Source: Terriglobia bacterium
GTDB taxonomy: Bacteria > Acidobacteriota > Terriglobia > 20CM-2-55-15
Assembly (NCBI GenBank): GCA_963664115.2
Contig: CAXWPJ010000004.1
Location: forward strand, 96,001-160,000
Direction of reading: 5' to 3'
DNA: 64,000 bases
Below the pieces are notes generated by a model that was not told where the DNA came from, searched no databases, and saw nothing but the letters and a program-made list of their open reading frames with translations. Made by a program: the position numbers and the translations under genes. Shown one piece after another: positions 6,770 to 56,898 of the stretch (positions are counted from its first letter, which is position 1; each line of letters starts with the position of its first letter).

Positions 6770-7162
6770 ATGAACACAGCACGCGCGTTAACTCTTTTTG
6801 CTACGGCCACCCTGTTGCTGGCTGTTTGTGTCGATACGGCGTCAGCCCACCATTCCACTACGATTTATGATTCCGACAATCCTATTGAGCTCAGTGGCAC
6901 GGTGGTTGAATGGAGGTTCATCAATCCTCATTGCATCATCATGCTTGAAGTGACCGACGAGAGCGGAGACACCTCGATCTGGATTCTGGAAGGTAGCAAC
7001 ACCAGCGTCCTGTTTCGCCGCGGCTGGACACCGATGACACTACAGTCGGAGGATAAAATCATTGTTAGAGTCCGACCGCTACGTAGCGGCGTCCCCGGCG
7101 GCAACTACAGTGATCCTCGTTGGGAAGATGGTACGCCTGTCGATCCAAGCGCTGATGACTAA
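6770..7162 (+). CDS. DUF6152 family secreted protein (copy 1)
   Basis: Signal peptide ending ASA-HHS; W.FINPH; W.LEG; L.RRGW. Confidence 0.8.
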   Translation: MNTARALTLFATATLLLAVCVDTASAHHSTTIYDSDNPIELSGTVVEWRFINPHCIIMLEVTDESGDTSIWILEGSNTSVLFRRGWTPMTLQSEDKIIVRVRPLRSGVPGGNYSDPRWEDGTPVDPSADD

Positions 7163-7208
7163 GTGGGTGATAAGCATGTTTATGCTGACAGAGGGCGGAA
7201 TCAACAAC

Positions 7209-8042
7209 ATGAGTAGGCTCTTGATCGTGATCATCTTCGCTATGGTGACTGCTATCTCATGTGCACAACAGGAAAGTACATCGGGCACGGCTGCTTTCGC
7301 CACATATCCTGACTGGGGAGGACAATGGCAACGCATCGGCAGTCTGAACTGGCCCCCGGAAGGATACACGGAAGCGGGGCCTGCGCCCTTGACCGAGGAA
7401 TACCAGGCAATCTACGAAGAGAACCTGGAGCTGCGCAGCAATGGCGTTCTGGCCGGTGATCCACCTGCGACGTGCCTGCCGCCAGGTATGCCCAGGGTAA
7501 TGAAAATGAGTTTCCCGATGGAGATTATTGTCACTCCTGACATGACCCACATCATTGCCGACTGGGAGAGTCAGGTACGTCGCATTTACACAGATGGGCG
7601 CGCCTGGCCCGACTATATATTGCCGGAATTCAACGGGTATTCGATTGGCGAGTGGCACGATGAAGATATTGATGGTGTCTATGACATGCTTTCAATCGAA
7701 ACGCGTGGCATCAAAGGACCCCGTTCCATTGATTCCACAGGCGTGGTTCTGCACGAAAATAACCAGACGGTGGTGCTGGAAGAGATCCGCCGCGTTGATG
7801 AGAACACGATGGAAGACAGAGTGACCACAATCGACGATGCCTTTACCGGACCCTGGACGATCAATCAGCACTACAGCCACGTCACCGAAGACATCGTCTG
7901 GGTCGAGTACGTCTGCGCCGAAGGCAATCGCCACATAAAACTCGGTGATGAGTGGTACTTTCTGAATGATGCCGAAGGAATTCTGGAGCCAACCCGCGCA
8001 GGTCAAGCTCGGCTCGTTCCGGAAACTCAGGTCAATCAATAA
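7209..8042 (+). CDS. Conserved secreted/lipoprotein hypothetical, DUF6152-partner family
   Basis: Lipobox-like ISC; CLPPGMPR, RRIYTDGR, GYSIG.W, EYVC motifs shared with the other partner copies. Confidence 0.7.
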   Translation: MSRLLIVIIFAMVTAISCAQQESTSGTAAFATYPDWGGQWQRIGSLNWPPEGYTEAGPAPLTEEYQAIYEENLELRSNGVLAGDPPATCLPPGMPRVMKMSFPMEIIVTPDMTHIIADWESQVRRIYTDGRAWPDYILPEFNGYSIGEWHDEDIDGVYDMLSIETRGIKGPRSIDSTGVVLHENNQTVVLEEIRRVDENTMEDRVTTIDDAFTGPWTINQHYSHVTEDIVWVEYVCAEGNRHIKLGDEWYFLNDAEGILEPTRAGQARLVPETQVNQ

Positions 8043-8297
8043 TCCACACTTGCCGGTGGCGTGAAGCACGTCGCCCGTCCCTGGCCGAGGCTGGAACCCA
8101 TTCTCGAGACCCGAAAAATCCCTCTTGTCGGAAGTTAAAAAACCCCAGAGGTAAAAAAGTCCAGGATTCAAACGACAATTCGCTACCCGCAGGGCAGGCG
8201 CAAGGGAGTTTGCAGTCAGAGAACTGAAGGCAAGCAGCCTTTCCGTTCCAATAGCTTGTTCGAATCGAGTGCAAACCCTTCATGCACACGCATCCGC

Positions 8298-10624: not shown

Positions 10625-11437
10625 ATGGGTGCAGTAGGTATAACTCAAAGGCGAGGATGGACCTCGGCCCTGGCGGTCGTTTTCTTAGTCGCGTTGCTTG
10701 TCTTTGCTCCAGAGAATCTGTCGGCACAAAGTAACGAGCAGTTCGACAAGTCTTTTCCGTATATCGGAAGCTGGGACAACGGGGCCGACAATCCCGACGG
10801 TCAGGATCGGGGCAATTGCGGGGGGCGACTTGGAGACTACGGCGAAAAGCTGATCAACTGCTCCTTGCCGGTGGACCAGCTTCCGTTGAACCGCCGGGGA
10901 GAGGCCTGGCTGGAGTTCGTGGACCACCAGGCGTCGCCCGCCCTGGCCGAATGCGCGGACGTGGCCATTCCGGGATTGTTGGGCAGCACCATGCACATCT
11001 CCGGATATCCGAACCGATTGGTGTTTCAACATTCCATTCGCCTGACCACCCGGACCATTTGGATGGATGGGCGTGGTCACCCGGAAGCCCGGCACCTTTT
11101 CCAGCATGGCCATTCAATCGGCTGGTGGGACGGCGAAGACCTGGTCGTCGAAACCACCAACTTCACCTTCGACCCCGACGGCATCGACGACCACCTCCAT
11201 ATGGCGTCTTCGGTCCGAAAGAAAGTCACCGAACGCTACCAGGGGATCGATGAAAACACGCTCAGGCTCATTATCATCCTGGAAGACCCCACTTTTCTGA
11301 CGCGACCGTTTAAGTATGCCTACATCTTGAACAAACGGGCGAACGGACCAGCGCCGGACTGGGACGCCTGTGATCCCGAGGTTTCCCGAAACGAAGTCAT
11401 TTTTGCCTATCCCGGAAACAAATATCCCGAGGACTGA
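10625..11437 (+). CDS. Conserved secreted hypothetical, DUF6152-partner family, Cys/His-rich subtype
   Basis: IWMDGR.HP, GHSIGWWDGEDLVVET.NF, ERY, EDP motifs; paralog of 27004-27867; start uncertain (10601 or 10625). Confidence 0.7.
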   Translation: MGAVGITQRRGWTSALAVVFLVALLVFAPENLSAQSNEQFDKSFPYIGSWDNGADNPDGQDRGNCGGRLGDYGEKLINCSLPVDQLPLNRRGEAWLEFVDHQASPALAECADVAIPGLLGSTMHISGYPNRLVFQHSIRLTTRTIWMDGRGHPEARHLFQHGHSIGWWDGEDLVVETTNFTFDPDGIDDHLHMASSVRKKVTERYQGIDENTLRLIIILEDPTFLTRPFKYAYILNKRANGPAPDWDACDPEVSRNEVIFAYPGNKYPED

Positions 11438-11787: not shown

Positions 11788-12180
11788 ATGAACATCAAGT
11801 TAACCATCCTTGCCACGTTGTTGAGTCTGTCGGTGGGTGTGATGGTGTCTCACGCACACCACGCGTTCGCTGCGATCTACGAAACTTCAAGAGAGGTTGC
11901 GTTTGAAGACGTAACGATTGTCAGCGTGGCCTGGACGAATCCGCACACGAGAATTGCGTTCGATGTCACCGACGAGAACGGCGAGATCACACGTTGGAAT
12001 ACGGAAACGGGGAGCCCATCGGCGCTGTCGCGTATGGGTTGGTTGAGAAACGCCGTGAAACCCGGCGATGTAATCGACGTTGAGGTGAATCCCGCGACGG
12101 ACGAGACGCCGCGCGGTCATCTGGCCAAAGTGACTTTAGCCAATGGTACGGTGTTTGATCGCACCGGCATCGGGAATTAG
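11788..12180 (+). CDS. DUF6152 family secreted protein (copy 2)
   Basis: SHA-HHAF, WTNPH, SP..L.RMGW, KPGD motifs; GGGAGA RBS. Confidence 0.82.
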   Translation: MNIKLTILATLLSLSVGVMVSHAHHAFAAIYETSREVAFEDVTIVSVAWTNPHTRIAFDVTDENGEITRWNTETGSPSALSRMGWLRNAVKPGDVIDVEVNPATDETPRGHLAKVTLANGTVFDRTGIGN

Positions 12181-12195
12181 GCGGAGGCATCCGAC

Positions 12196-12942
12196 ATGAT
12201 CAGGCGTTCGAATAGTGTGTGCTTCTTTGCAGTTCTGTTTCTCAGCCTGTCGCCCTACGGAGCTGCCCAGGAGCCCGCACCGGTCCGCGATCTGAACGGC
12301 GTGTGGAATGGCGGCGCGGTCATGCGCCTGGAGCCGGTCCCCGAAATGACCGAGTGGGGACAAGAGCGGTTCGACGCGGCCCGGCCGTTTCGCGGGCCGA
12401 GAGCGGTTGCGGTGTCCGATTCGAACGACGGCTTCCGCATGTGCGATCCGCTGGGATTTCCCCGCAGTATCTTTTACGAACTCCGCGGTGTGGAGTTTTT
12501 CGAGATGCCCAACAAAATGTTGATGCTGTTCCAGTACCAGCGTACATGGCGCGAGATCTGGACAGACGGACGCGAACTCCCAACGAACGTGGGGACCTAC
12601 GAAGACGGCGCTCCCGACCCGGCCTACTTAGGCTACGCCGTGGGCCGGTGGGTGGATGACTCCACCTTTGTCGTCAATTCCACGGGATTCCATGAAGCGC
12701 CCTGGAGTGATCCGGAAGGTCACCCGCGGAGCGTGAGCGCGCGGATAGAAGAACGCTATCGCCGCATCGACCACGATAGTCTGGAAATCACCGTGACAAT
12801 CGATGATCCTGTAGCCTATACGGAGCCGTTCGTGGGGATGAAACAGGTCATCAGTTGGGACCCGGACCAGGAGTTCGAAGAGCAATTCTGCATCCCTTCG
12901 GAAGCGATCGAGTACATGCGGACGTTCGCGCCGGAGCAGTAG
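12196..12942 (+). CDS. Conserved secreted hypothetical, DUF6152-partner family
   Basis: Signal peptide; RDL.GVW, CDPLGFPR, REIWTDGR, GY.VG.W, EERY.R, IDDP, EQFC. Confidence 0.75.
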   Translation: MIRRSNSVCFFAVLFLSLSPYGAAQEPAPVRDLNGVWNGGAVMRLEPVPEMTEWGQERFDAARPFRGPRAVAVSDSNDGFRMCDPLGFPRSIFYELRGVEFFEMPNKMLMLFQYQRTWREIWTDGRELPTNVGTYEDGAPDPAYLGYAVGRWVDDSTFVVNSTGFHEAPWSDPEGHPRSVSARIEERYRRIDHDSLEITVTIDDPVAYTEPFVGMKQVISWDPDQEFEEQFCIPSEAIEYMRTFAPEQ

Positions 12943-13090
12943 ACAGAGTGATTCACCTGCCGGGGCTCGGACCTCTGGCGTCGACATCGTTGACATCAAC
13001 GGTGGCGGCGGAATAGTATCGCTCTGTAAATATTATTTTGACCGCCCTGATGGTCATCAGTAAGTACCCTCAAAAGGTCGAGGAGGACAG

Positions 13091-13486
13091 ATGAAAACAA
13101 TCGGAGTAGCCCTGATGGTCGCGCTGCTCGCCCTGTCGGTGGGCGTGACGGCGTCATACGCGCACCACGCGTTCGGTGCAATATACGAAAGCTCAGCGGA
13201 GGTTGCGTTTGAAAATGTGACGATTGTCAGTGTGGCCTGGACGAATCCACACACTCGCATTGCATTCGACGTGACCGATGAGAACGGCACCGTGAGCCGT
13301 TGGAACTCGGAAACGGGGAGCCCGTCGGCTCTGTCGCGCATGGGCTGGTTGAGAAACGCCGTAAAGCCCGGCGATGTCATCGACGTTGCCCTTCAACCGG
13401 CGATGGACGGGACCAAACGCGGTCACCTGTTCCGCGTTGTCTTGCCGGATGGCACGGAATTCAATCGCCGCGGCGCCGCGAGATAA
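13091..13486 (+). CDS. DUF6152 family secreted protein (copy 3; tandem duplicate of copy 2)
   Basis: Near-identical core to 11788-12180; AGGAGG RBS. Confidence 0.82.
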   Translation: MKTIGVALMVALLALSVGVTASYAHHAFGAIYESSAEVAFENVTIVSVAWTNPHTRIAFDVTDENGTVSRWNSETGSPSALSRMGWLRNAVKPGDVIDVALQPAMDGTKRGHLFRVVLPDGTEFNRRGAAR

Positions 13487-13501
13487 GCTGGAGAACCCGA
13501 C

Positions 13502-14245
13502 ATGATCATGCGTTCCAGCACTGTGTATTTCTTTGTAATTCTGTTTCTCAGCCTGTCGCCTTACCTGACGGCCCAGGAACCGGCGCCGGTCCGCGACTTG
13601 ACCGGAGTCTGGGAGGGCCGGGTGAATTTCGACGCTCAGTTCGCTGAAATGACCGGGTTTGGACAGGAACAGTTCGATGCGCACCTGCCTTTCAGCGGGC
13701 CGCGCGCCGGCTCGGTCGCTGAATCGAATGACGGCTATCGCGTGTGCGATCCCCTGGGATTTCCGCGTAACGTCGTCTATGAGCTCCGTGGGACTGCGTT
13801 TGCCGAGATGCCGGACAGGATGGTGATGCTGATGCAGTACATGCGGCATTGGCGCGAGATCTGGACCGACGGACGGGAACTCCCAACGAACGTGGGAACC
13901 TACGAAGATGGCGCTCCCGATCCACGCTATAACGGCTACTCGGTGGGGCGGTGGGAGGACGACTACACCTTCGTCGTCAACTCCACGGGTTTCCACGAAG
14001 ACATCTGGGCCGACGAGCAAGGTCACCCGATCAGCACGAACGCGCAGATAGAGGAACGTTATCACCGGGTCGACCACGATAGTTTGGAAGTCACGATGAC
14101 CATTAACGATCCCATGAACTACACGGAACCGTTCGTGACAATCACGGAAACCTTGAACTGGGACGAGGACCAGGAATTTGAAGAGCAGCTCTGCATCCCC
14201 TCTCAAGCGCTAGAGTACATCCGGACGTTCGCGCCGGAGCGATAG
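13502..14245 (+). CDS. Conserved secreted hypothetical, DUF6152-partner family (tandem duplicate)
   Basis: Close paralog of 12196-12942. Confidence 0.75.
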   Translation: MIMRSSTVYFFVILFLSLSPYLTAQEPAPVRDLTGVWEGRVNFDAQFAEMTGFGQEQFDAHLPFSGPRAGSVAESNDGYRVCDPLGFPRNVVYELRGTAFAEMPDRMVMLMQYMRHWREIWTDGRELPTNVGTYEDGAPDPRYNGYSVGRWEDDYTFVVNSTGFHEDIWADEQGHPISTNAQIEERYHRVDHDSLEVTMTINDPMNYTEPFVTITETLNWDEDQEFEEQLCIPSQALEYIRTFAPER

Positions 14246-14307
14246 GGCCAGTAATTCGTCGCCGCTTGAGCGGTTGGCATCAATCGGTAGTGCCCTGATT
14301 CCACCTA

Positions 14308-14336
14308 CAAAGGAGCGGTTCTGACCGCTCCTTTTG
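14308..14336 (+). terminator. Probable intrinsic terminator
   Basis: AAAGGAGCGGT-TCTG-ACCGCTCCTTTT hairpin with U-tract after the duplicated module. Confidence 0.65.
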
Positions 14337-14541
14337 CTGTAAGGGGCCGCATCCGACGGCCCGTTTTCATAGAAGGCGCTTGTCAAACCCCCACTGTGGT
14401 GGTCATCGGAAGCCCCAGCTTCTCTATGGGCGTGTGATTCACCCATATCCTTTCAACGCGAAGAATCAATCCTGGTGCTCGGGTCCCGAAGTCGTTCCCT
14501 GGAAGGAACAACGAAGGGCGTCTACTTTCGCTTGAAGCGCT

Positions 14542-14575
14542 GTCTTATCGATCAACTCGTCTTACCGATCAACTC
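14542..14575. repeat. 17-bp tandem direct repeat (2 copies)
   Basis: GTCTTATCGATCAACTC / GTCTTACCGATCAACTC, 16/17 identical. Confidence 0.7.
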
Positions 14576-14804: not shown

Positions 14805-15938
14805 ATGAAATTCGGAGACAGACCAATTGTACTTGGCGCGGTGGTAATGGTGATCGCATGCATGGTGCCACTTGCGTCTGCAGTCGAACCCACGCAACCG
14901 CCGCAGCAGACCCCCCCGATGGCGGACGATGTATTCAATAATATCCAGGTTCTCACAGGGCTCACTGTGGACGAGTTTTGGAACACGATGGGGATGTTCG
15001 CAGCTTCGCTCACCAAGGACTGCGTCGATTGCCACGTCATCGGGGCCCTCGAGAATTGGGACGCCTTCGCCGAGGAAACAGACCAGATACGTATCGCCCG
15101 GGGCATGATTCGGATGGTGAACGATATCAACAACACTCAGTTCGGGGGCGCGCAAAGAGTAACGTGCTTCACGTGTCATCGCGCTACCTCGATTCCGGAG
15201 GCCGCGCCTGATCTTGCTCTGCAGTACGGTCTTGTCGAGAATCCGAATTCGATGACCTTGTACCCGACTCCTCTTGCACCGTCAGTCGAGGAAGTTTTTG
15301 ATACCTATATTGAGGCCATTGGCGGGGCCGAAGCCGTGGAAAGTATCGAGAACGTCGTTATCCGGGGGACGTATGCGGGTTTCGAAACCGGCCATATCGA
15401 CACTCCTTTTGAACTCTATGCTCAAGCTCCGGACAGACGCACGCGTATTTTCCACAAGGCCTCGGGAGACCACTACCGCGTTTATGACGGGGAAAACGGG
15501 TGGAATTCCAACCCTGATATGCCGGTTCCCTTGATCCCCAACTCTGGCGGCAATCTTTACGGCGACCGCATCGGCGCGCTGTTGTCCTTTCCGGCTCGAA
15601 TCCGGGAAAACTTCAGCCGGTGGGTGGTCAGCTTCGTTTTCGTCGGCGATGAGACCTTCACGGTCGCCCAGGGCGTCCAAGGCGCTGAGCTTCCGGTCAA
15701 CTTCTATTTCGACGAGTCCGGGCTGTTGACTAAGGTTGTGTACTGGACGGAGACCGCCGTGGGCCCGGTGACAAGCATGATCGAATACACCGATTACCGC
15801 GAGGTCGACGGGGTCATGGTGCCGTTCTTCTGGTCGGAGTCATGGACGACGGGAATGATCGAATCTACACTGACCGAGGTGGAATTTAACGTCCCGATCG
15901 ATTCCGCGAGATTCAGCCAACCGCCTCCTGCCTACTAA
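14805..15938 (+). CDS. Di-heme c-type cytochrome (reaction-centre cytochrome c/PufC-like N-domain) with beta-rich C-terminal domain
   Basis: Signal peptide; F.NIQVL.G, CVDCH, AR.MI.MV..IN, VTCFTCHR; C-terminal Y.DYREVDGV.VPF. Confidence 0.75.
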   Translation: MKFGDRPIVLGAVVMVIACMVPLASAVEPTQPPQQTPPMADDVFNNIQVLTGLTVDEFWNTMGMFAASLTKDCVDCHVIGALENWDAFAEETDQIRIARGMIRMVNDINNTQFGGAQRVTCFTCHRATSIPEAAPDLALQYGLVENPNSMTLYPTPLAPSVEEVFDTYIEAIGGAEAVESIENVVIRGTYAGFETGHIDTPFELYAQAPDRRTRIFHKASGDHYRVYDGENGWNSNPDMPVPLIPNSGGNLYGDRIGALLSFPARIRENFSRWVVSFVFVGDETFTVAQGVQGAELPVNFYFDESGLLTKVVYWTETAVGPVTSMIEYTDYREVDGVMVPFFWSESWTTGMIESTLTEVEFNVPIDSARFSQPPPAY

Positions 15939-27003: not shown

Positions 27004-27867
27004 TCAATCTGCTCCATACTTTGCTCCCGGATAGGCGAAGTACACCTCATTTCTGGAAGCCTCCGGATCGCAGTTTTCCCATGCGGGCTCGATCCCCCCC
27101 GGACTTCTATAGAGGGAGAAGGCGTACTTGAACGGCCGCGTCAGGAACGTCGGGTCTTCCAGGGTGATGATGAGCCTCAAGATGTTTTCATCGACGATCT
27201 GATAGCGCTCGGTCACTTTCTTCCGTACCGATGTCGCCATATGAAGGTGATCGTCCATGCCATCGGGATCGAAAGTAAAATTGGTGGATTCGACAATCAG
27301 GTCGTCTCCGTCCCACCAACCGATCGAATGCCCATTCTGAAACAAGAATCGGGCCTGCGGATGCCCGCGTCCGTCCATCCATATTTCCCGGGTGATCAGG
27401 CCCACTGCATTGTCCGAATACTGGAATATCAGATGGTCCGGAAACGACCAAATATAGACCCCCGCGCCGAATATCGTCGGAATGGTCGGAAGGGCACACT
27501 CGGCCAGTGTCGGCGACATACGGTGGTCAGCGAACTCAAGCCAGGCCTCCGCCCTGCTGTTCAACGGAAGCTGGTCGGTCGGAATCGAGCAATTCAGCAG
27601 TTTTTCACCGTAGTCTCCCAGACGGCCGCCGCAGTTGCCACGTTCCTCGTCATCGGGATTTCTGATCCGCGTATCCCAGTTCCCAATAAGGGTAAAGGAC
27701 TTATCAAATTGCTCAAAGCTTTGTGCGGCCAGACCTGGCGGCACGAACATCAGCATCCATAGCAGGAAGCTCCCGAGTAGAAAGCTCCCAAGCAGAAAGC
27801 TCCCGACGGAACGCCCGTTCCAGCCTCGCTTCCGACAAGTCACTCTTTTTCCAAAAATACGTGTCAT
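27004..27867 (-). CDS. Conserved secreted hypothetical, DUF6152-partner family, Cys/His-rich subtype
   Basis: Close paralog of 10625-11437 (GNCGGRLGDYGEKL.NCS.P.DQLPLN; DDHLHMA.SVRKKVTERY); AGGAG RBS. Confidence 0.75.
   Translation of the reverse strand: MTRIFGKRVTCRKRGWNGRSVGSFLLGSFLLGSFLLWMLMFVPPGLAAQSFEQFDKSFTLIGNWDTRIRNPDDEERGNCGGRLGDYGEKLLNCSIPTDQLPLNSRAEAWLEFADHRMSPTLAECALPTIPTIFGAGVYIWSFPDHLIFQYSDNAVGLITREIWMDGRGHPQARFLFQNGHSIGWWDGDDLIVESTNFTFDPDGMDDHLHMATSVRKKVTERYQIVDENILRLIITLEDPTFLTRPFKYAFSLYRSPGGIEPAWENCDPEASRNEVYFAYPGAKYGAD
27761..27805. repeat. 3 x 15-bp coding tandem repeat (GSFLL x3) in a signal peptide
   Basis: AGCAGGAAGCTCCCG / AGTAGAAAGCTCCCA / AGCAGAAAGCTCCCG. Confidence 0.8.
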
Positions 27868-40761: not shown

Positions 40762-40777
40762 TTCACAGGAGATCACC

Positions 40778-44598: not shown

Positions 44599-44621
44599 TG
44601 ATGATTACACGATTTGGAAAA

Positions 44622-44650
44622 TAGGAATATAGGGCTCTGACCCCTTTTTA
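44622..44650 (-). repeat. Right 29-bp inverted repeat (pairs with 42845-42873)
   Basis: TAGGAATATAGGGCTCTGACCCCTTTTTA. Confidence 0.75.
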
Positions 44651-45454
44651 GCCCTGGTGCGAGTTGATGAAGCTGGAAATCTGCTGCGCAACCAGGTCGG
44701 GTCTGATGAGAGGAGCCAGATGGTCGCAATCGTCCAACGTTAACAACTGAGCACTGGGTAAGGCCGCGGCTAGAATCGCGGAGGCGCCTTCGAGGAGCGG
44801 GGGCGTTCGCCCTCCTTTGATTACCAGTGTCGGTTGGTTCAACTGCAGTAGATCGGACCTCGATCGGGGCCAACGGAGCGCAAAATCGAGTTCGTTTCGG
44901 AGCGGTAGCCAGTTGTCTATGCCTTTCTCCGAGGGCATGCGGGCGAGTTCGACCTTGGTGTCGTGTAAGAGCTCAAGGTGGTCCATGAATTTCTTGATCC
45001 CACCTTCGATATCACCGCCCTGAAACAAGGGGACGATTTCCTCCTTCATTTTTTTGAGTGGGGGAGGGATCGCATTATCGGGATACATAGCGTACACGGC
45101 CGGTTCCATGAGAACCAATCCGCGAACGCGATCGGCGAAGAGACTCGCGTACCCCAGGGCGACGATGCCGCCGGAGGAATGCCCGAACACCCACACGGGC
45201 CCGGATGCGGCTTCGTCGAGAACCGCGTGAACAGAATTTGCCTGTTCTTCGACGCTCGTGTTCGCATCGAGTCGTGTCGAACGCCGGTATCCCAATCGAT
45301 CTAAAGCTATGCAACGGTGGCTGCCGGAAAGCTCGTTGATCAGTGGCGCCAAAGTGTCGGAATCGGAAGCTGCGCCATGCAGGAAGAGAATCTCGGGGCC
45401 CGTTCCTTCAACCGTGTAGAAAACTTCTTTATCTTGCGTGACCTGAACAATCAC
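44648..45454 (-). CDS. Alpha/beta hydrolase
   Basis: FLHG, D.LGY..S, GHSSGG nucleophile elbow, C-terminal H; GTG start at 45454 after AAGGA. Confidence 0.88.
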   Translation of the reverse strand: MIVQVTQDKEVFYTVEGTGPEILFLHGAASDSDTLAPLINELSGSHRCIALDRLGYRRSTRLDANTSVEEQANSVHAVLDEAASGPVWVFGHSSGGIVALGYASLFADRVRGLVLMEPAVYAMYPDNAIPPPLKKMKEEIVPLFQGGDIEGGIKKFMDHLELLHDTKVELARMPSEKGIDNWLPLRNELDFALRWPRSRSDLLQLNQPTLVIKGGRTPPLLEGASAILAAALPSAQLLTLDDCDHLAPLIRPDLVAQQISSFINSHQG

Positions 45455-45509
45455 ATGTGATCCTTGGATGACATCATTCGATGCCAGAAAAATATAGTGT
45501 CGACCAATT

Positions 45510-47189: not shown

Positions 47190-47276
47190 TATTCAGGACC
47201 GATCATATCATTTCGGCGCGCGCCGACTAACGCCCGCCGGCTAAGGGATAGGTGAGGTCAGGGCGCTGGACGTATA

Positions 47277-48914
47277 ATGAAGACTATGGAACAGAGTCGG
47301 CGAAATCGACGGCTGCTACGCCTTCTTGCGGCGATTCTATTTCTCAACCTGTGGACCTCGCCGGAGTCGTCGGCCCAGACCCGACTGCGATTCGAAATCT
47401 CTGTGCCCGAGTCGCTGCGATCCGAGCCGATCACCGGACGCGTGTACGTCATGTTCTCCCCAAATAATCCGCGCAGCCCCTATCTGCAGGTGGGCCGCAC
47501 TGGCATTCCATTTTTCGGAACTGATGTTGAAAGCCTGCCACCGGGCACCGTGGCCGTTGTCGACGAGGACGACCTCGGCACGCCGGTCGCGAACCTCAGC
47601 GACATCCCTCCAGGCGACTATTTCATACAGGCCTTCGTCAGTATTTATTCGGAATTTCAGAGGGCCGACGGCCATGTCGTCTGGATGCACGACGACAGAT
47701 GGGAGGGGCAACGTTGGAATCGCTCGCCAGGCAATCTCTACAGCGTTCCGCAGCGCGTGACGATCGACCCTGCGGCCGGAGGCGTGTTCCGGTTGGAAGC
47801 GAACCGCGTAATTCCTCCAGTTGAGATACCGGATGATACGGAGTGGGTCCGGCGCCTGCGTTTCCAAAGTCCGACGCTCTCGGAGTTCTGGGGACGGCCG
47901 ATTTACCTCGGCGCAACAGTTCTCCTGCCGCCCGACTACGACGAGAACACAATGTCCTACCCTGTGGTTTACGAGCAGGACCACTTTTCACTGAATGCGC
48001 CGATGGGGTTTGCCCCAGGGCGCCGGCTGTATGACGCGTGGACGTCGGATGATTTCCCCCGCATGATCGTCGTCACCTTCCAACATCCCACGCCCTATTT
48101 TGACGACTCCTACGCAGTGAATTCTGCGAACGTCGGCCCCTACGGTGACGCAATCATGGGCGAACTCATTCCGGAAATAGAACAGCGTTTTCGAGTGATC
48201 ACCGAACCCTGGGCCCGAATATTGACCGGCGGGTCCACAGGCGGTTGGGAAGCCCTGGCACTACAGATCTTTCACCCGGACTTCTTTGGTGGCACCTGGG
48301 CCTATTGTCCCGACCCCGTGGATTTTCACGACGTCGAGGGCATCAATATCTACGAGGATACGAACGCTTACTACAGACAGCAGGGCGGACGCCGGGTGCC
48401 CACGCCGAACACACGGGAAACCAACGGCGAGATACGCTTGACCTCCGAACAGCGCAATCACTTTGAATTGGTCAGTGGAACGAGAGGCCGCTCCGGCGAA
48501 CAGCTCGATGCATGGTCCGCCGTATACGGACCCCTCGGCGAAGATGGGTATTTCAAACCTCTATTCGACAAACTCACAGGTGAGATCGATCCCGACGTTG
48601 CCGCATACTGGCGCGACAACTACGACCTGCGTTACTACCTCGAGCAGAACTGGACCGCGATAGGAAGAAAACTCATCGACAAGCTGCACATCTACACAGG
48701 CACCATGGACAACTTCTATTTAAACAATTCCACGAAGATGCTCGAAGAGTGGATGGCGACCACCACGGACCCACACTACGCAGGCTACTTCGAATACGGT
48801 ATCGGTGCCGGCCACTGCTGGGCGGGAACCGCGACCAGTTGGGAACGACTCCGGGAGATGGCCGACTACGTCATCGAAAAGAAACCCGCCTCTACGCCTG
48901 CCCCCTGGTATTAG
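47277..48914 (+). CDS. Secreted esterase-like alpha/beta-hydrolase protein
   Basis: Signal peptide; S.FWGRP...A.VLLP, GGSTGGW nucleophile motif, G..D.F.L, H. Confidence 0.75.
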   Translation: MKTMEQSRRNRRLLRLLAAILFLNLWTSPESSAQTRLRFEISVPESLRSEPITGRVYVMFSPNNPRSPYLQVGRTGIPFFGTDVESLPPGTVAVVDEDDLGTPVANLSDIPPGDYFIQAFVSIYSEFQRADGHVVWMHDDRWEGQRWNRSPGNLYSVPQRVTIDPAAGGVFRLEANRVIPPVEIPDDTEWVRRLRFQSPTLSEFWGRPIYLGATVLLPPDYDENTMSYPVVYEQDHFSLNAPMGFAPGRRLYDAWTSDDFPRMIVVTFQHPTPYFDDSYAVNSANVGPYGDAIMGELIPEIEQRFRVITEPWARILTGGSTGGWEALALQIFHPDFFGGTWAYCPDPVDFHDVEGINIYEDTNAYYRQQGGRRVPTPNTRETNGEIRLTSEQRNHFELVSGTRGRSGEQLDAWSAVYGPLGEDGYFKPLFDKLTGEIDPDVAAYWRDNYDLRYYLEQNWTAIGRKLIDKLHIYTGTMDNFYLNNSTKMLEEWMATTTDPHYAGYFEYGIGAGHCWAGTATSWERLREMADYVIEKKPASTPAPWY

Positions 48915-48935
48915 TCTGTAACTGAAGAGAAGAAA

Positions 48936-49130
48936 GAATTTCACCGCAAAGGCGCAAAGACGGAAAGGTCGGAGAAACCCTGGGCTGTGTAGAGTGGTGC
49001 CTAGCGAAGTTCAATGGGTTTCCATGGCCGTTTTCTAAGCCAAGGCATTCGGTACGGACGAGAGGTAGACAAACTATCTTATTTCTTTCTCTTTCTTCCT
49101 TTGCGTCTTTGCGCCTTTGCGTTGAATTTC
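48936..49130. repeat. 195-bp element with 33-bp terminal inverted repeats built on CGCAAAG(G/A) octamers
   Basis: GAATTTCACCGCAAAGGCGCAAAGACGGAAAGG (48936-48968) vs reverse complement of 49098-49130: 30/33 identical. Confidence 0.75.
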
Positions 49131-49144
49131 CCTCTTCCTTCTCG

Positions 49145-50176
49145 TCACTCATCACTTGTCACATCTTCCGTTTCCTTCCGGGGCCAGAGTAGCGACGCGA
49201 TTGTGGACAGGGCCAGAACGCCGGCGATGAATCCCAGCGACACGCCGATTGGGAAGTGACCGTCATAGAGATCGTTCAACCAAACCATCTTCAGACCGAC
49301 AAAGACCAGAACGACGGCCAGGCCATACTTGAGAAGGTGGAACTTGTCGAGCGCGCCGGCGAGTAGAAAATAGATGGAGCGCAGCCCGAGGATGGCCGAC
49401 AGATTCGAGGTGAAGACGATCAGCGGCTCACTAGAAATTGCAAAAACGGCCGGCACCGAATCCACAGCAAAGACAATGTCGGTCGCTTCCAGAAAAATGA
49501 GCGCAACCACAAGGGGCGTCCCGTACAGGACACCATCCAAGCGTACGAAGAATTTTTGACCATGGAAAGACGGCGTGACCGGCACAAAGCGGCGGAAGAT
49601 CCGTATGAGTGTGTTCTTCTCAGGCTCGACTTTCCCTTCCGGAGCGTACGCAAGACGAATTCCCGTAAAAATCAGGAAGACCCCGAACAGATATACGATG
49701 GACTGGTACTGCATCAGGACTGACCCAGCCACGATAAATGAGCTGCGGAAGATAAAGGCGCCCATGATGCCGTAGAACAGGACGCGATGCTGGTAGCGGG
49801 CCGGTATACCGAAGTACTTGAAGACGACGACGAAAACGAAGATGTTGTCGACCGACAAGGATTCCTCGACAACATAACCTGTCAGAAACTCCAGAGCCAC
49901 GCGCCAGGCTTCAGCGCCGGGGTCGAAACCAGGAATCGCCAGAAGGCGAGCATCCATTCCAAACTTCCACAGCGAGAACTGGTACAGCCCGAAGTTGAAC
50001 AACAGGGCAAGTGAAACCCATATGGAAACCCATACTCCAGCCTCCTTCATCGACACTACATGGGCTTCCTTGTGAAAGATCCCCAGGTCGATCAAAAGGA
50101 CCAGGACGACACCCACCATGAAGGCCAGGTATAGCGACCAGTACTCGGCCACCGGAAAGAGTTGAACGTTTGACAT
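49145..50176 (-). CDS. terC: TerC/Alx family membrane protein (Mn2+ homeostasis)
   Basis: EF.TGY.VE.SLSVDNIFVF, QHRVL.YG..GA, E.TD..FAVDS.PA, SN..AILGLR; preceded by a yybP-ykoY riboswitch. Confidence 0.9.
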   Translation of the reverse strand: MSNVQLFPVAEYWSLYLAFMVGVVLVLLIDLGIFHKEAHVVSMKEAGVWVSIWVSLALLFNFGLYQFSLWKFGMDARLLAIPGFDPGAEAWRVALEFLTGYVVEESLSVDNIFVFVVVFKYFGIPARYQHRVLFYGIMGAFIFRSSFIVAGSVLMQYQSIVYLFGVFLIFTGIRLAYAPEGKVEPEKNTLIRIFRRFVPVTPSFHGQKFFVRLDGVLYGTPLVVALIFLEATDIVFAVDSVPAVFAISSEPLIVFTSNLSAILGLRSIYFLLAGALDKFHLLKYGLAVVLVFVGLKMVWLNDLYDGHFPIGVSLGFIAGVLALSTIASLLWPRKETEDVTSDE

Positions 50177-50213
50177 AAGCTCGGAATCTCACTTCAAGGA
50201 GAGACGTTCCTCC

Positions 50214-50252
50214 AAAAAAAAAGACCCTCCGCGGCATCTCCGCAGAAGGTCT
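50214..50252 (-). terminator. Intrinsic terminator of the riboswitch expression platform
   Basis: Minus strand AGACCTTCTGCGG-AGATG-CCGCGGAGGGTCT followed by a U-tract. Confidence 0.85.
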
Positions 50253-50368
50253 TGCTCCGGGACATCTCCCCGCCGGTGGACCGGATCGTTTTGAGAACGA
50301 CCGTGTTGACGATCTACCGGACCGATCCGCCTTACAACGTCGCGAGTCGGCGACCTACTCCCCTTCAG
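50246..50368 (-). ncRNA. yybP-ykoY (Mn2+) riboswitch
   Basis: Minus strand GAAGGGGAGTAG...CGTCAACAC...GAGCAAGACCTT hallmark motifs, upstream of terC; 3' strand overlaps the terminator. Confidence 0.9.
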
Positions 50369-50500
50369 TCGTCTTCACCGTACACGAGAGACACCGTTCG
50401 GATCAAATCCATTCTGGAAACCGGCCGAGCGCGGTCCGAATGCAGTCGCGATCACAATCCGGTATAATTCGCTTCTCGAACAGAATTGCCAGGATTATCC

Positions 50501-51478
50501 ATGTCGACAACACAAACAGCCGCCGACGTTCGTCATAACTGGACACGCCCGGAAATTGCAGCCATATACGGGCAACCCTTACTGGATCTCATCGGCCAGG
50601 CGCACCAGGTTCACCTGCGATACCACAATCCCCGGGACGTCCAGCTCTGCAAGTTGATTTCGATCAAGACCGGAGGGTGTCCGGAAGACTGTGCATATTG
50701 CCCCCAAAGCGCACACTACGAAACGGACGTCGAGGGCCAGGCATTGCTTGATGTGGACCACGTGATCCAGGCAGCGCGCGAGGCGAAAAAGGAAGGTGTA
50801 CAGCGCTTTTGCATGGGAGCCGCCTGGCGGGAAATCAAAGACGGTCCGGAGTTTGAAAACGTCCTCGCAATGGTACGTGGGGTTGCTCAGACCGGACTGG
50901 AGGTGTGTTGCACGCTGGGCATGCTCAGCGAATCGCAGGCGAGCAGACTTGCCGATGCGGGACTCCATGCCTACAATCACAACCTCGATACGTCTCCCGA
51001 GTATTACGAAAAAATCATCACAACCCGAAGCTACCAGGATAGGCTCGATACGCTGGCCGCGGTACGCAAGGCCGGCGTTACGGTTTGCTCAGGCGGCATC
51101 GTCGGTATGGGAGAAACGGACGAAGATCGCGTGGGCCTGCTGCACCAACTCGCCGGCCTCGATCCACACCCGGAGAGTGTTCCCGTCAACGTGCTGGTGC
51201 AGGTCGAAGGAACACCACTCACACCCACCGAATCGATCGATCCCTTCGTTCTGGTCCGGACGATCGCCACAGCACGCATCCTGATGCCCCGATCCCGGGT
51301 TCGATTGAGTGCTGGACGACGATCTCTCAACAGGGAATGCGTCACGCTCTGCTTCCTGGCCGGTGCCAATTCGATCTTCGTGGGTGATCGACTGCTCACG
51401 ACTCCAAACCCCGATCGCTCTGAAGACGCGCAGCTGCTTGAAGACCTGGATCTCATTTCAACGGGTCATGACGCGTAA
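50501..51478 (+). CDS. bioB: Biotin synthase
   Basis: [13 protein letters not shown] (CxxxCxxC), [29 protein letters not shown]. Confidence 0.96.
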
Positions 51479-52634
51479 GTTAGCAGAACGAAAGACACTC
51501 CATCGACTCGAAGCAGAGCTGACGTCGCTACGGTCACACTACCTTTACCGCTACCCGGAAGTCGGGAGTGGATTCCAATTTTCTTCGAACGACTATCTGG
51601 GTCTCTCCCGTCACCCGGCGATGGCCGCCGCCGTCCAATCCGCCGTCGAAGCTTCGGACCGCGTTGCCTCAACCGGATCGCGTCTGCTTTCCGGCCACGT
51701 GGGAGCATGGGAAAAGCTCGAAGAAGGATTCAGCCAATACGTTGGGGTCGAAGCCGCGCTGTTTTTCAATTCCGGCTATGCGGCCAACATCGGACTGCTC
51801 ACGGCGATAGTGCGCGCCGAGGACACCGTCTTCTCCGATGCAGCGAATCACGCCAGCCTGATTGATGGCATCCGATTGGCCGGTTGCCGGAAGGTCATCT
51901 TTCCTCACCTCGATCTGGATTTCCTCGAAGACGCTCTCCGCAGCAACGACAGCCGTGGCGACGAGCGTTTCATTGTTGTCGAGAGCATATTCAGCATGGA
52001 TGGCGATCGCGCGCCTATCGATCAGCTTGTCAGCCTGGCCGAAAAGTATGACGCGGGTTTGATCGTTGACGAAGCACACGCGACGGGTGTTGTGGGTCCC
52101 GACGGACGCGGCCTCATCGCTCTGTCCGATCGGTCCGACGCGATCATCGCCAGCATTCACACCTGCGGAAAGGCGCTGGCCGCTTCAGGAGCTTTCGTCG
52201 CCGGATCAAGGACACTAAAAGAGTATCTGACCAACAACGCACGTCCTTTCATATACACGACTGGTCTGCCGCCATATATGGCTGCTCAAGTCGGGGCTGG
52301 AATCAAACTCGGAGCTGCCGCCCAAGACGCGCGTGCCCGGCTCAGCGCGATGTCAGAAAGCTTGCGCGAGGGTCTCAAAAACGCCGGTTTCGACTCGGGG
52401 AATAGCAATACTCAAATTGTCCCGGTTCTGCTCGGAAGCAATGAGAGAGCGCTCGACACGGCCCAACGGATGCGGGACGAAGGCTTCGAGGTGCGGGCCA
52501 TCCGCACGCCTTCGGTTGCTGAAGGCACCGCACGGCTGCGACTGTCCGTTACCGCCGACCTCCCGCCGGATGCCATCGATGGCCTGGTGGATGCGATGAC
52601 GCGTTGTCGACGTGATAGTGATCGAATCCGGTGA
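51468..52634 (+). CDS. bioF: 8-amino-7-oxononanoate synthase
   Basis: [38 protein letters not shown]. Confidence 0.93.
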
Positions 52635-53266
52635 GAGACTTGTTCGTAACCGGAACCGACACCGGGATCGGCAAGACCGTTCTCTCGGCAACGCTCGCCA
52701 CTGGCCTCGACGCGGCCTACTGGAAGCCGATTCAGACGGGCCGGCTAGGAGGAGACGAAGAAACCGATCGCGAATCCGTGGTTCGCTGGGCAGGCCTTGA
52801 CGAAGGAGACGCTCCGGTGGAAGCGTTTGTATTCGATCCACCTGTTTCGCCGCACCTGGCTGCGCAGAACGCCGGCGTCAGGATAGCCCTGTCCGCGTTA
52901 CGGAAGCCCGAAGTTACCAAGCGGCTGATCATCGAAGGCGCGGGTGGTGTGCTCGTACCGATCAATGAGAAGGACCTGATGCTCGACCTGATCGGGCAAG
53001 TCGATGCCGATGTCGTGGTCGCGAGCCATACGGGACTGGGTACAATCAACCACACCCTCCTTACAGTCAACACCGTCCGCCATGCAAATCTGAATCTGGT
53101 CGGAGTCGTCATGATCGGTGAGGAAAACGTCGAAAACAGGAAAGCCATCGAACATTACGGCGACGTTGCCGTAGTCGGGTGGATACCAATCCTGGGGACA
53201 ATCGATCGGACTACTCTGCACAGTGCGTTTCGGAACCACTTCGACCGGGCGGCCTTCAATGGATAA
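52631..53266 (+). CDS. bioD: Dethiobiotin synthase
   Basis: FVTGTDTGIGKT, WKP.QTG, EGAGG, LGTINHT. Confidence 0.95.
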   Translation: MRDLFVTGTDTGIGKTVLSATLATGLDAAYWKPIQTGRLGGDEETDRESVVRWAGLDEGDAPVEAFVFDPPVSPHLAAQNAGVRIALSALRKPEVTKRLIIEGAGGVLVPINEKDLMLDLIGQVDADVVVASHTGLGTINHTLLTVNTVRHANLNLVGVVMIGEENVENRKAIEHYGDVAVVGWIPILGTIDRTTLHSAFRNHFDRAAFNG

Positions 53267-54563
53267 ACCACTCCACATCTGGCACCCGTACACGCAGGAA
53301 TCGCTCGATCCAGAGCCTATCCGCATTAAGAGAGCCGAGGGTGTGTATCTGTACACCGAAGACGGCCGGCGGCTTCTGGACGGGATTTCCTCCTGGTGGG
53401 TCAACACTCACGGGCATGCGCATCCACGTATCAGCGCGGCGATCGCGAAACAGGCCCGGGAACTGGAACATGTCATCTTCGCCGGATTTACACACGAACC
53501 CGCCGAACGGCTCGCCTGCAAACTCCGGAGCGTAACGCCTGAAGGCTTGTCTCACATTTTCTTCTCTGATAACGGATCCACCGCGGTCGAGGTAGCGTTA
53601 AAAATGGCCGTCCAATACTGGAAAAACCGCGGCGCAGGCCAACGAAAGAACATCATTGCTCTCGAACATTCCTATCATGGCGACACGGTCGGCGCGATGT
53701 CGGTCAGCGCGGAATCACCCTTCACTGAAGCGTTTAACCACATGTGCTTTGAAGTCCAACATGCACATTCGGCTTATTGCTACCGGTGCCCGGTGGGACT
53801 CAAACGGGAAAGTTGTTCGATCGAATGTGTGGCATCGATACAAACACTGTTGGAACAGCAGGCAAGCACCGTCGCCGCTGTCATCGTCGAACCCCTCCTC
53901 CAGGGCGCGGGCGGTATGATCATGCATCCTCCCGAATTCCTGGAACGGATTGGCCAGTTGTGCCGCGAACACGGCGTCCTGTTGATCGCCGACGAAGTGT
54001 TAACCGGTTTCGGAAGAACAGGTGCGATGTTCGCCTCCGAACTCGCCGGGGTGACGCCCGACATCATGTGCCTCTCGAAGGGATTGACGGGTGGGTATCT
54101 CCCGTTTTCGGCAACGCTCTGTTCTGAGGAGGTGTACGCGGCCTTTCTCGCCACAGACCGCATGCGTACGTTCTTTCATGGCCACTCCTACGCCGGCAAC
54201 CCCCTGGGTTGCGCGGCAGCTCTGGCGAACCTCGAGATCTTTGAATCCGAGCCCGTCTTCGAACGGATCCGAACCATCGAACGTATTCACCGGGAACGAC
54301 TCCCCTTGTTGGGGGAAAGTCCCCTCGTCGGTGACACGCGCATGATCGGCACCGTCGCCGCACTCGAGTTGGAAACGGATGATCCGGGTTATCTGTCCGA
54401 CGTCCGACCTGTGCTTTACGACTTTTTCATAAACCACGGTGTCCTGCTGCGGCCTCTCGGAAACATCATCTATATCCTGCCGCCCTACGTCATACAGCCC
54501 GACGAATTGCACTTCATCTACGATGTAGTCGCCGAAGCGCTCGAACACATTTCCAACCGGTAG
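53259..54563 (+). CDS. bioA: Adenosylmethionine-8-amino-7-oxononanoate aminotransferase
   Basis: IWHPYTQ, DGISSWW, DNGSTAVEVALK, IADEV.TGFGRTG, SKG.TGG, HGHSY.GNP. Confidence 0.95.
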   Translation: MDKPLHIWHPYTQESLDPEPIRIKRAEGVYLYTEDGRRLLDGISSWWVNTHGHAHPRISAAIAKQARELEHVIFAGFTHEPAERLACKLRSVTPEGLSHIFFSDNGSTAVEVALKMAVQYWKNRGAGQRKNIIALEHSYHGDTVGAMSVSAESPFTEAFNHMCFEVQHAHSAYCYRCPVGLKRESCSIECVASIQTLLEQQASTVAAVIVEPLLQGAGGMIMHPPEFLERIGQLCREHGVLLIADEVLTGFGRTGAMFASELAGVTPDIMCLSKGLTGGYLPFSATLCSEEVYAAFLATDRMRTFFHGHSYAGNPLGCAAALANLEIFESEPVFERIRTIERIHRERLPLLGESPLVGDTRMIGTVAALELETDDPGYLSDVRPVLYDFFINHGVLLRPLGNIIYILPPYVIQPDELHFIYDVVAEALEHISNR

Positions 54564-54796
54564 TTTAGAAGTCCTGAGCCGGCACAATCCCGGATTTTCC
54601 GTGAAGACAACCACTCTCTGATACAGTTGCCTGAACAGGCAGCCTCTTTGCGATTTCGATGAGCATAACGACCTGGTACGTCGCGCTTCCCCGTCCCGAT
54701 CACCGGGTGCGCTTCGTGTCCGGGTTATATGAAAAACTTCCACCCGAAGACACGAGTGTCTTTACAATATAAACTTCAATCTTCAACTCCCTCGAG

Positions 54797-55600: not shown

Positions 55601-55606
55601 TCCGGA

Positions 55607-56410
55607 TCAGTTGCCTATGCCGAGACTCGGATCACGAATTCTGCGATTGTATTCATCCAGTTCGTTCATCGGCGCGCAAATCGCCTCCGTGACGCCTGAA
55701 AACAAGCCTGTCCAGCCGAAAAAGCTCACGTCCTGGGGTCGCATGCGGGTGAAGATGGTGGGCTCTTGCACCCAGGGCGCGGTGTAATTCTTGGGGTCAT
55801 TGACAACCACTCGACCCTCTATCGTGTTGACGCCGGTCCGTGTGTACCGCTCTTCTATCAGGGCATCGAAACCCGTTGGATTGGCAAATTCGTCGATCCA
55901 CGCTCTTTCGTCGAGACCTGTTGTCTGGACGACTAGCGTGTCGCCCTCCCACGCGGCAACCGAGTGTCCGTACCAGGTCGGCCCCAGGTTATCGAGGTTC
56001 TCCCCCGAGGGCAGTTCCCGCCCATCCATCCAGAGCTCGCGTAGCGTTCGCTCCCACTGGAAGTGTTGGATCACCCTGTCTGCGGTGTGAATGAATTCTA
56101 TGGGTTCATTCTCCTCCCAAACGAGCCTGGGAAAACCCTGAGGATTGCACATGTACATGGGGTCGTTGCTTTCGTTGGGCAGAGTGGTGAGATAGTCGGG
56201 AACACGCCCTTCCATCATTGCAACGCCAGCCGGCGTCAGAGGAGGTGGGTCGTTGTTTCGAGGAGTATCCCCCATCCAGTAGCCGGATAGATCACGCGGA
56301 TCAAACTCCCCCGACTGTTGCTCGCCCAACGACGGGTGAGCCAGCCCAAAGGCTGCCAGCGCAATGACGAACACCGATGTCCACACGGACACCATCGACC
56401 GATTTCGCAT
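55607..56410 (-). CDS. Conserved secreted hypothetical, DUF6152-partner family
   Basis: RDLSG.W, CNPQGFPR, RELWMDGR, GHSV..WEGDTLVV.T.G, EERY.R, DP, EAIC. Confidence 0.75.
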   Translation of the reverse strand: MRNRSMVSVWTSVFVIALAAFGLAHPSLGEQQSGEFDPRDLSGYWMGDTPRNNDPPPLTPAGVAMMEGRVPDYLTTLPNESNDPMYMCNPQGFPRLVWEENEPIEFIHTADRVIQHFQWERTLRELWMDGRELPSGENLDNLGPTWYGHSVAAWEGDTLVVQTTGLDERAWIDEFANPTGFDALIEERYTRTGVNTIEGRVVVNDPKNYTAPWVQEPTIFTRMRPQDVSFFGWTGLFSGVTEAICAPMNELDEYNRRIRDPSLGIGN

Positions 56411-56487
56411 CTCCTAAACTCCTTAGCTATGTATTAGGTCTGAAGTCCCCGAACTGGTTCTGTGCGTCCTGTGCACAGAATACCCGG

Positions 56488-56898
56488 TTAATCGATGGTG
56501 TTGGCGTTGCCCCGTGAATTCACAATTGTGCCATCCGAAAGCGTGACATTCCTGAGAATGCCGACCGGGGCACCCGAACGCGCGGGATTGTAGGTAACAC
56601 TAACCTCCTGACCGGGCTTAAAAATATTTCTGCTCCAGCCTTGCCGGGACATCGTGCTCACGTTGCTGCTCTCGAAACCCCAGCCGACGACCTTACCGTC
56701 CGCGTCAACCGAGTCCAGAAAAAGCGTCACATGAGGGTTACGCCACGAGAATTCCGTCACCGTCCCATCGACCGACAACTCCTGATCCCCATCGTAGGTC
56801 TGGCCTCGGCCGTGGTGTGCGGACAGCGTTCCAACAGCGAGTGACAGGCCCACGAGGGCGACGGCGGCGCAGAACAGTCCAATCCGATAGTCTTTCAT
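56488..56898 (-). CDS. DUF6152 family secreted protein (copy 4)
   Basis: LSA-HHG, GTV.EF.W.NPH, W.FE, GW....KPG; AGGAGG RBS. Confidence 0.82.
   Translation of the reverse strand: MKDYRIGLFCAAVALVGLSLAVGTLSAHHGRGQTYDGDQELSVDGTVTEFSWRNPHVTLFLDSVDADGKVVGWGFESSNVSTMSRQGWSRNIFKPGQEVSVTYNPARSGAPVGILRNVTLSDGTIVNSRGNANTID

Follow-up and report, generated by a model that had tools for sequence, protein, structure and literature searches.

A secreted two-part module, expanded and diversified across the genome and very likely holding a metal site, lies at several places in a 64,000-nucleotide stretch of DNA from a Terriglobia bacterium (contig CAXWPJ010000004.1, positions 96,001 to 160,000; hereafter, the window). 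Its small subunit belongs to the DUF6152 family (PF19649) and has a predicted oligonucleotide/oligosaccharide-binding (OB) fold, while its partner is predicted to form a barrel resembling those of fatty acid-binding proteins (FABP). Three lines of evidence carry this finding, namely, an almost invariant histidine triad, the common occurrence of fusions of the two proteins, and the confidently predicted fold of such a fusion; to this extent the original prediction, made from the window alone, has held. We favor the view, at a probability of roughly 45%, that the pairs constitute a family of periplasmic metallo-oxidoreductases with the metal site on DUF6152 and a diversified substrate pocket, because the putative metal ligands are constant, their surroundings are variable, the variants are very many, and a dedicated cytochrome accompanies the system.

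Ten genes of the module were found in the window at the positions that had been claimed, each of the four DUF6152 genes being followed by a partner gene:

6770..7162, + strand: DUF6152 copy 1, 130 amino acids, His-His at 27-28, NPH histidine at 54; predicted exported OB-fold metal subunit
7209..8042, + strand: barrel partner 1, 277 amino acids, conserved cysteines 89 and 236; without Pfam or NCBIfam family
10625..11437, + strand: four-cysteine barrel partner, 350 bases upstream of DUF6152 copy 2
11788..12180, + strand: DUF6152 copy 2, 130 amino acids, His-His at 24-25, NPH histidine at 53
12196..12942, + strand: barrel partner 2, 248 amino acids, cysteines 83 and 232
13091..13486, + strand: DUF6152 copy 3, tandem duplicate of copy 2 (mature proteins 77% identical)
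13502..14245, + strand: barrel partner 3, tandem duplicate of partner 2 (70% identical)
27004..27867, - strand: stand-alone barrel partner, paralog of the gene at 10625; start codon uncertain
55607..56410, - strand: barrel partner 4, 267 amino acids, cysteines 88 and 245
56488..56898, - strand: DUF6152 copy 4, 136 amino acids, His-His at 28-29, NPH histidine at 56

The four DUF6152 copies matched PF19649 with E values of 2e-21 to 2e-25 and 75 to 89 bits (gathering score, 27 bits), and none of the six partners had a match in Pfam or NCBIfam. DUF6152 and its downstream partner are separated by 15 to 77 bases in the four pairs, two of which (11788-12942 and 13091-14245) form a tandem duplication. 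The signal junctions ASA-HHS, SHA-HHA, SYA-HHA, and LSA-HHG and the NPH motif were all present in the DUF6152 copies, as were, in the partners, the motifs R.[IL][WY].DGR, G[YH].[IV]..W, and C.P.G.PR and the C-terminal cysteine. The two extra partners (10625-11437 and 27004-27867) form a subtype with a second cysteine pair in the lid region (GNCG, NCS), and position 27004 marks the stop end of a minus-strand gene; the one at 10625, which had been set apart from the pairs, is no orphan and lies on the same strand as the DUF6152 gene at 11788.

Iterated profiles built from the window genes were searched against the 4.9-Mb genome, in which genes were called with a simple in-house caller, and revealed 125 DUF6152 and 145 partner domains, an expansion larger than the one first described. 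Together these make up the largest gene family of the genome (257 of 4573 called genes, three times the next family) and about 3.5% of its DNA. DUF6152 was adjacent or fused to a partner in 91 of the 125 cases, 78 having one adjacent same-strand partner, 5 having two, and 8 being fused; of the remainder, 11 are neighbored by a different family and 23 lack both within 450 bases. Of 18 further genomes belonging to the same family, 11 contained 45 to more than 112 matches (112 being the ceiling of the scoring) and 7 contained 0 to 3, and none of 14 control genomes contained any; in 151 genomes drawn across the phylum, DUF6152 occurred in 14. Expansions were also seen in other records, with at least 150 matches in Rariloculaceae, 76 in Micropepsaceae, and 88 and 43 in Acidobacteria, and the partner profile retrieved 24,642 clusters at 50% identity, none of them named. 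Pseudogenes, repeat elements, and assembly artifacts were discarded as explanations on the grounds that the frames are open, that paralogs share only about 33% identity, and that relatives show the same expansion. Separately, a few distant copies of the module are nearly identical (G000 C2:11156 and C2:155728, C4:1426 and C5:138933, C11:76543 and C6:6003), one such set including a pair of DUF6644 genes, which reflects either recent duplication or assembly redundancy.

The two histidines of the His-His pair and the NPH histidine, numbered His1, His2, and His27 after the fusion modeled below, were all kept behind a signal-like segment in 123 of the 125 DUF6152 copies of the genome, the two exceptions being one truncated copy and one fragment. 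They were likewise kept in 666 of 668 collected domains in which these columns are covered, a set biased toward them since the search profile includes these histidines. Glu47 was conserved in 594 of 675 domains (88%) and replaced by Gln in 46. His-His falls mostly at residues 20 to 33 of the called genes and is preceded in 123 domains by Ala (112), Gly (5), Ser (5), or Pro (1), with Ala, Leu, or Val at position -3 in 107. Of the 1362 remaining called genes whose N terminus is hydrophobic, just 1 has [AGS]HH at residues 15 to 45, whereas 123 of the 125 DUF6152 domains keep all three histidines, which is beyond chance. Alanine at this place fits cleavage by signal peptidase I, and we infer that the signal is removed directly before His1, which would then be the first residue of the mature protein. 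The only invariant polar residues of DUF6152 appear to be the predicted metal ligands, i.e., His1, His2, and His27, to which Glu47 may be added; with paralogs about 33% identical while the three histidines do not vary, a metal site is very likely. Three histidines and a glutamate fit copper and also iron, manganese, nickel, cobalt, or zinc. Copper was singled out by no result, and its specific assignment is left aside. In the ESM Atlas, the nearest named clusters for window positions 13091-13483 were MamS/MamX-domain proteins at 0.82, which is a lead only.

The fold was studied on a natural fusion from this genome (L001:223-1155), modeled with 123 fusion sequences, giving a mean predicted local distance difference test score (pLDDT) of 93.5 and a predicted template modeling score (pTM) of 0.88. 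As the pTM is high over both domains, the model points to a defined packing of the two in the fusion, where a linker is present. Residues 4 to 96 adopt an OB fold, closest to single-stranded DNA-binding protein (SSB; 4dam) and PriB, with a best Z score of 8.8 (SSB). Residues 116 to 291 form an FABP-type barrel, antiparallel and with a helical lid after strand A as in FABP/CRABP proteins according to the model (Z 9.4; nanoKAZ, 8.9; UnaG, 8.7; nitrobindin, 7.5), and Foldseek matched it to FABP/CRABP with an E value of 8e-4 and a target TM score of 0.58; such scores are moderate and show fold, not function.

Within the OB domain, His27 and Glu47 sit in one hairpin, at the start of strand 2 and the end of strand 3, respectively, the register being given by couplings 30-46 and 33-43, and a coupling analysis of 746 domains recovered the OB strand pairings. 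Position 8 of the N-terminal arm was coupled to Glu47 (z 8.0, the second strongest of the pairs listed) and position 7 to position 84 (z 4.2), and since these couplings place the arm near the hairpin, it probably lies over the His27/Glu47 end of the OB barrel. The couplings of His1 and His2 to His27 are uninformative, as these columns are near-invariant, and the 8-Glu47 coupling suggests proximity only, not the geometry of a T-shaped N3 brace. We infer that His1, His2, His27, and Glu47 converge. Subfamily-specific OB positions (5-7, 29, 48-53, 75-77, and 84-87) were closer to these ligands than the others (17 versus 45 positions; p 0.01), and they form the usual ligand-binding face of OB folds.

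These features do not support the canonical copper histidine brace that had been proposed. The motif would place a histidine at mature position 1, but the modeled fold is OB rather than immunoglobulin-like or cupredoxin, and the second adjacent histidine and the conserved glutamate provide donors in excess of those a brace requires. The genome yielded no CopC, and LPMO (lytic polysaccharide monooxygenase), CopC, and YcnI profiles were absent from the Pfam and NCBIfam hits. The protein seems to work like an N-terminal-histidine metalloprotein while standing, by its modeled fold, outside the LPMO, CopC, and YcnI families. CusF and CcmE are metal or heme chaperones with an OB fold; neither was among the 50 fold matches listed, which does not exclude either, and the search brought up no known OB fold that carries a His-His arm at its N terminus.

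The partner resembles calycins of the FABP/CRABP type in fold (2qo4, zebrafish L-BABP; 5b0u, nanoKAZ; 4i3b, UnaG; 3ia8, nitrobindin; Z 7.5 to 9.4), with a root mean square deviation of 3.3 to 3.9 Å over 106 to 121 residues and 9 to 19% identity. Unlike FABP/CRABP proteins, which are cytosolic monomers of about 135 amino acids, it has a longer lid, an extra hairpin, a DGR loop, and a conserved cysteine pair and is predicted to be exported, 110 of 135 called partner genes having a hydrophobic N terminus. The two cysteines were kept in 99% and 96% of 907 domains and likely form a disulfide. Subfamily-specific positions cluster in the lid (156-176), turns 189-192 and 213-216, hairpin 240-246, and around the last cysteine; the lid and turns lie roughly where FABP barrels have their portal. 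The barrel had no FABP profile match in Pfam and no sequence match in the PDB, its ESM Atlas neighbors were all unnamed, and PDB sequence searches with four queries gave nothing significant. A fifth query matched the repetitive adhesin 6xi3 (E 1e-4), which we took as chance since no single stretch passed.

That two of the barrel's fold neighbors, UnaG (Z 8.7) and nitrobindin (Z 7.5), bind bilirubin and heme, respectively, raises the question of a heterodimer holding heme or a tetrapyrrole in the barrel, with histidine ligands supplied by DUF6152. CcmE is itself a heme-binding OB fold, and HbpS-like genes lie near the module in 4 of 8 cases. Nitrobindin, however, did not rank above other barrels, the interior of the barrel lacks conservation over the family, and three histidines plus a glutamate exceed what heme ligation requires, so that we regard this explanation as very unlikely.

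Evidence that the two proteins belong together comes from natural fusions, of which the genome holds eight open reading frames (three of them nearly identical). Fusions accounted for 119 of the best 120 matches of one search, and fusion loci also occur in records of Gamma- and Alphaproteobacteria, Acidobacteria, and Gemmatimonadales. Over 74 nonredundant unfused pairs, the distances of the two subunits were correlated (Mantel r, 0.46, versus 0.18 for the highest of 1000 shuffles), and 34 of the pairs had the same nearest neighbor for both subunits. These distances indicate that the pairs are inherited as units; joint duplication alone would explain the correlation, which does not prove binding.

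G094 and G142 hold 8 and 10 barrels, respectively, for one DUF6152. These counts suggest either sharing of one metal subunit among several barrels or barrels that also work by themselves, and in G174 four barrel matches occur without any DUF6152. Some proteins of 450 to 530 amino acids (P0361-P0374 and similar) consist of two tandem barrel domains, and partner-partner-DUF6152 triplets are frequent (e.g., G000 C2:333464-335074), suggesting, by these two arrangements, that barrels may pair with each other.

A second secreted family of about 215 amino acids, unrelated to the barrel and without a Pfam or PDB match, takes the place of the barrel ahead of DUF6152 in 10 of its 13 genes (L064:742-1395 and L062:569-1213 are examples). 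DUF6152 beside this alternative partner starts with HHxH, thus with a fourth histidine, in 17 of 19 copies, versus 10 of 614 elsewhere; the 19 copies may form one clade and so would not represent 19 independent events. The appearance of the fourth histidine beside the alternative partner suggests a partner-dependent set of ligands. Proteins with OB folds or FABP barrels mostly serve as plain binding modules, and the metal role is a predicted one, which would suit a metal-free family for binding, adhesion, or host interaction with histidines of structural or processing value. Such a family would account neither for three histidines left invariant among paralogs of such low identity nor for the partner-linked fourth histidine, and we consider it most improbable.

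The neighbor most enriched around the module is the membrane protein DUF6644, with 18 of the 21 genes in the genome lying within three genes of it. DUF6644 genes are mostly in tandem (88 of 96 collected genes), have one invariant histidine in the first long helix (94 of 94), and were modeled as four long helices with a pLDDT of 96.7. Some have an additional membrane domain at the N terminus, with several conserved histidines and no Pfam match of its own (L171:10490-11434; G000 C12:259658, C2:349872, and C5:120182), and this domain could bind heme. A cytochrome c'-like family with an invariant C-terminal CxxCH (9 of 9) matched PF01322 below the cutoff (E 1.5e-4 to 0.13).

In six genomes with a single DUF6152, the layout is partner-partner-DUF6152 facing DUF6644-DUF6644-cytochrome c'-like (G032, G082, G094, G106, G142, and G154, four of these six clusters coming from one genus), and G018 has the same layout without an adjacent cytochrome. 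Directly upstream lies one gene that joins a cytochrome c to a pyrroloquinoline quinone (PQQ)-type propeller in G032, G106, and G154; G094 and G142 have partial matches to that family there, and G082 has an amidohydrolase. Three further single-copy genomes fit less well, the pieces lying on different contigs in G122 and DUF6152 lying outside the region retrieved in G025, and G167 has a weak DUF6152 match together with DUF6644 and no partner match. Across the 151 genomes, DUF6152, the barrel, DUF6644, and the cytochrome c'-like protein were all present in 13, all absent from 135, and discordant in 3, with the caveat that the co-occurring genomes belong to five families and, as kin, are not independent and that the profile for the cytochrome draws on 7 of the 13 genomes in which it was detected. 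The same four-family pattern was seen inside families (2 of 4 and 4 of 8).

The membrane pair could also be read as an importer. In this explanation, the main rival, which we nevertheless consider rather doubtful, the module would scavenge metal in the manner of CopC and CopD, DUF6152 capturing the metal, the barrel recognizing organic chelates, and the DUF6644 pair acting as a split importer. The only two CopD-profile matches in the genome are DUF6644 genes, both below the cutoff (E 0.003 and 0.011, 18 to 20 bits; cutoff, 32.1), and weak DUF2214 matches occur too; the invariant histidine and the tandem arrangement agree with it, and the absence of CopC means that its role could be vacant. YcnI and YcnJ are reported to swap Cu(II) between His-brace domains (10.1101/2025.05.23.655588), and, according to PMC12537917, anglerases are His1 domains attached to metal permeases and the four His1 families tested bound Ni, Cu, or Co without real catalysis. 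Against scavenging, a dedicated c-type cytochrome tracks the system and metal uptake needs none, TonB-type receptors are barely enriched near the module (10 of 37; uncorrected p 0.04), and the enriched neighbor families scanned (17 proteins) included nothing identified as a transporter or regulator of metals. We also know of no metal uptake system that comes near the at least 125 copies seen here.

The most enriched of the characterized neighbors are of another kind, namely, metallo-β-lactamase (MBL)-fold hydrolases (31 of 83 near the module), NHL propellers (14 of 28), and an amidohydrolase-like family named from its sequence (10 of 19). Three histidines plus a glutamate make a common Lewis-acid site, and most pairs have no adjoining redox gene. 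All this would suit nonredox Zn, Mn, or Ni enzymes (hydrolases, lyases, or isomerases) for a range of small molecules, the membrane pair and the cytochrome then having their part in a linked step. This alternative leaves unexplained why DUF6644 and the cytochrome c'-like protein are confined to the same genomes, and we judge it unlikely.

Under the metallo-oxidoreductase reading, the OB-fold DUF6152 would bind a metal ion with the His-His pair at its processed N terminus, His27, and Glu47 and would dock on the barrel, which likely helps to select an organic substrate. Electrons would be exchanged with the membrane through the cytochrome c'-like protein and the tandem, CopD-like DUF6644 pair, in either direction. 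One chemistry may be applied by the 125 pairs to different molecules, with about ten membrane pairs in common use; because there are 125 variants here and 24,642 partner clusters, many substrates are a better fit than the few biological metals. Several observations weigh against the oxidoreductase, besides the kinship of the co-occurring genomes, the origin of four of six clusters in one genus, the makeup of the cytochrome profile, the weak CopD matches, and the many hydrolases, MBL-fold proteins among them, near the module. The window itself contains no DUF6644 or cytochrome c'-like gene, and Foldseek returned no PDB match for DUF6644 at E 0.001, the best being cytochrome bd at E 0.64. Interdomain coupling by mean-field direct coupling analysis of 475 and 526 pairs was not above shuffles (top scores, 6.2 and 5.2; shuffled pairings, 4.6 to 5.4 and 5.2 to 6.4). 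Model confidence within the OB domain is lowest over the first ten residues, which include His1 and His2 (block mean pLDDT, 75). Neither His nor Met is conserved in the barrel, whose invariant residues (Gly, Trp, Arg196, Glu254, Asp273, and the two cysteines) look structural and whose substrate cavity is only presumed. Finally, all four signal-peptide-His families tested in PMC12537917 bound metal and had little or no oxidase or peroxidase activity.

Expression of the module received weak support. Contigs at least 99% identical to 11788-14300 were found in four metatranscriptome runs of one study, runs that were themselves found by searching with that stretch; the pair at 55.5 to 57.0 kb, which was not part of that search, was covered in three of the four. 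DNA carried over into the libraries is possible. Coverage by RNA contigs was lacking over 6582-8286 and over most of 44001-54672, which is not evidence of silence. Promoter and terminator scans stayed at chance level.

Other window genes were noted around the module. A secreted two-heme cytochrome c (14805-15938, + strand; CxxCH at 73 and 121; CytoC_RC match) lies 560 bases past the tandem pairs, with a terminator-like hairpin in between at 14344, and 5 of the 10 members of its family in the genome are near the module. A secreted protein at 25147-25788 (+ strand) has a weak DUF1554 match, with 8 of 13 family members near the module. Expanded secreted families enriched near the module are also represented at 25885-26967 (- strand), 40718-41887 (+ strand), and 23489-25021 (+ strand), these being MBL-fold, NHL propeller, and glucose/sorbosone dehydrogenase-type genes. 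A likely transposase, judging from its sequence, at 57189-58475 (+ strand), from a 61-member genome family, lies 290 bases from the fourth pair and under the deepest RNA contigs of its stretch, as expected for a multicopy element.

Compared with known systems, the module resembles CopC/CopD (YobA/YebZ) and the copper acquisition proteins YcnI/YcnJ of Bacillus in being predicted to be exported with a histidine at the mature N terminus and inherited with a CopD-like membrane protein (a weak match). It differs from both in its OB rather than immunoglobulin-like fold, its combination of His-His, His27, and Glu47, its barrel and c-type cytochrome, its more than 100 copies per genome, and the lack of a CopC profile match. 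With LPMOs, some of whose electron donors carry cytochromes (cellobiose dehydrogenase or PQQ pyranose dehydrogenase), it shares a large paralog expansion, one N-terminal-His metal site, varied substrate surfaces, and electrons from cytochromes, here predicted; unlike them, it has a different fold, two subunits, an extra histidine, and a periplasmic cluster with a membrane pair. Like the signal-strapping families DUF4198, DUF6702, Ang-1, and Ang-2 (PMC12537917), it has a histidine straight after the signal peptide and extra histidines (DUF4198, His1 and His18, binds Ni; DUF6702 has His1, His28, and His32 in a model), and some of those families are membrane coupled; they are, however, β-sandwich, single-subunit metal binders that show little catalysis. 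DUF6152 was not found in the five supplements of that paper that were searched. A literature search that covered neither subscription papers nor most supplements found no paper on DUF6152, PF19649, DUF6644, or PF20349, none linking the His brace with an OB fold, and none linking CopD with HemJ.

We tentatively suggest that the module may represent a new class of modular periplasmic metallo-oxidoreductases, with swappable specificity subunits and a shared membrane conduit, that would serve as the main oxidizing toolkit for dissolved organics. In it, an interchangeable OB metal subunit would be combined with a barrel or with an unrelated protein that brings a fourth histidine and with a conduit made of a split CopD-like pair and a cytochrome c'-like protein, in 50 to 250 copies in uncultured Acidobacteria and Proteobacteria. 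The idea is directly testable, since single-chain fusions occur naturally and the six-gene cluster of the single-copy genomes amounts to a minimal system. If the enzyme reading is true, bioinorganic chemistry would gain a new metal site and a new combination of folds, with thousands of natural variants. Whatever it is, a function for the pair would account for a large part of the genes still unexplained in abundant uncultured bacteria.

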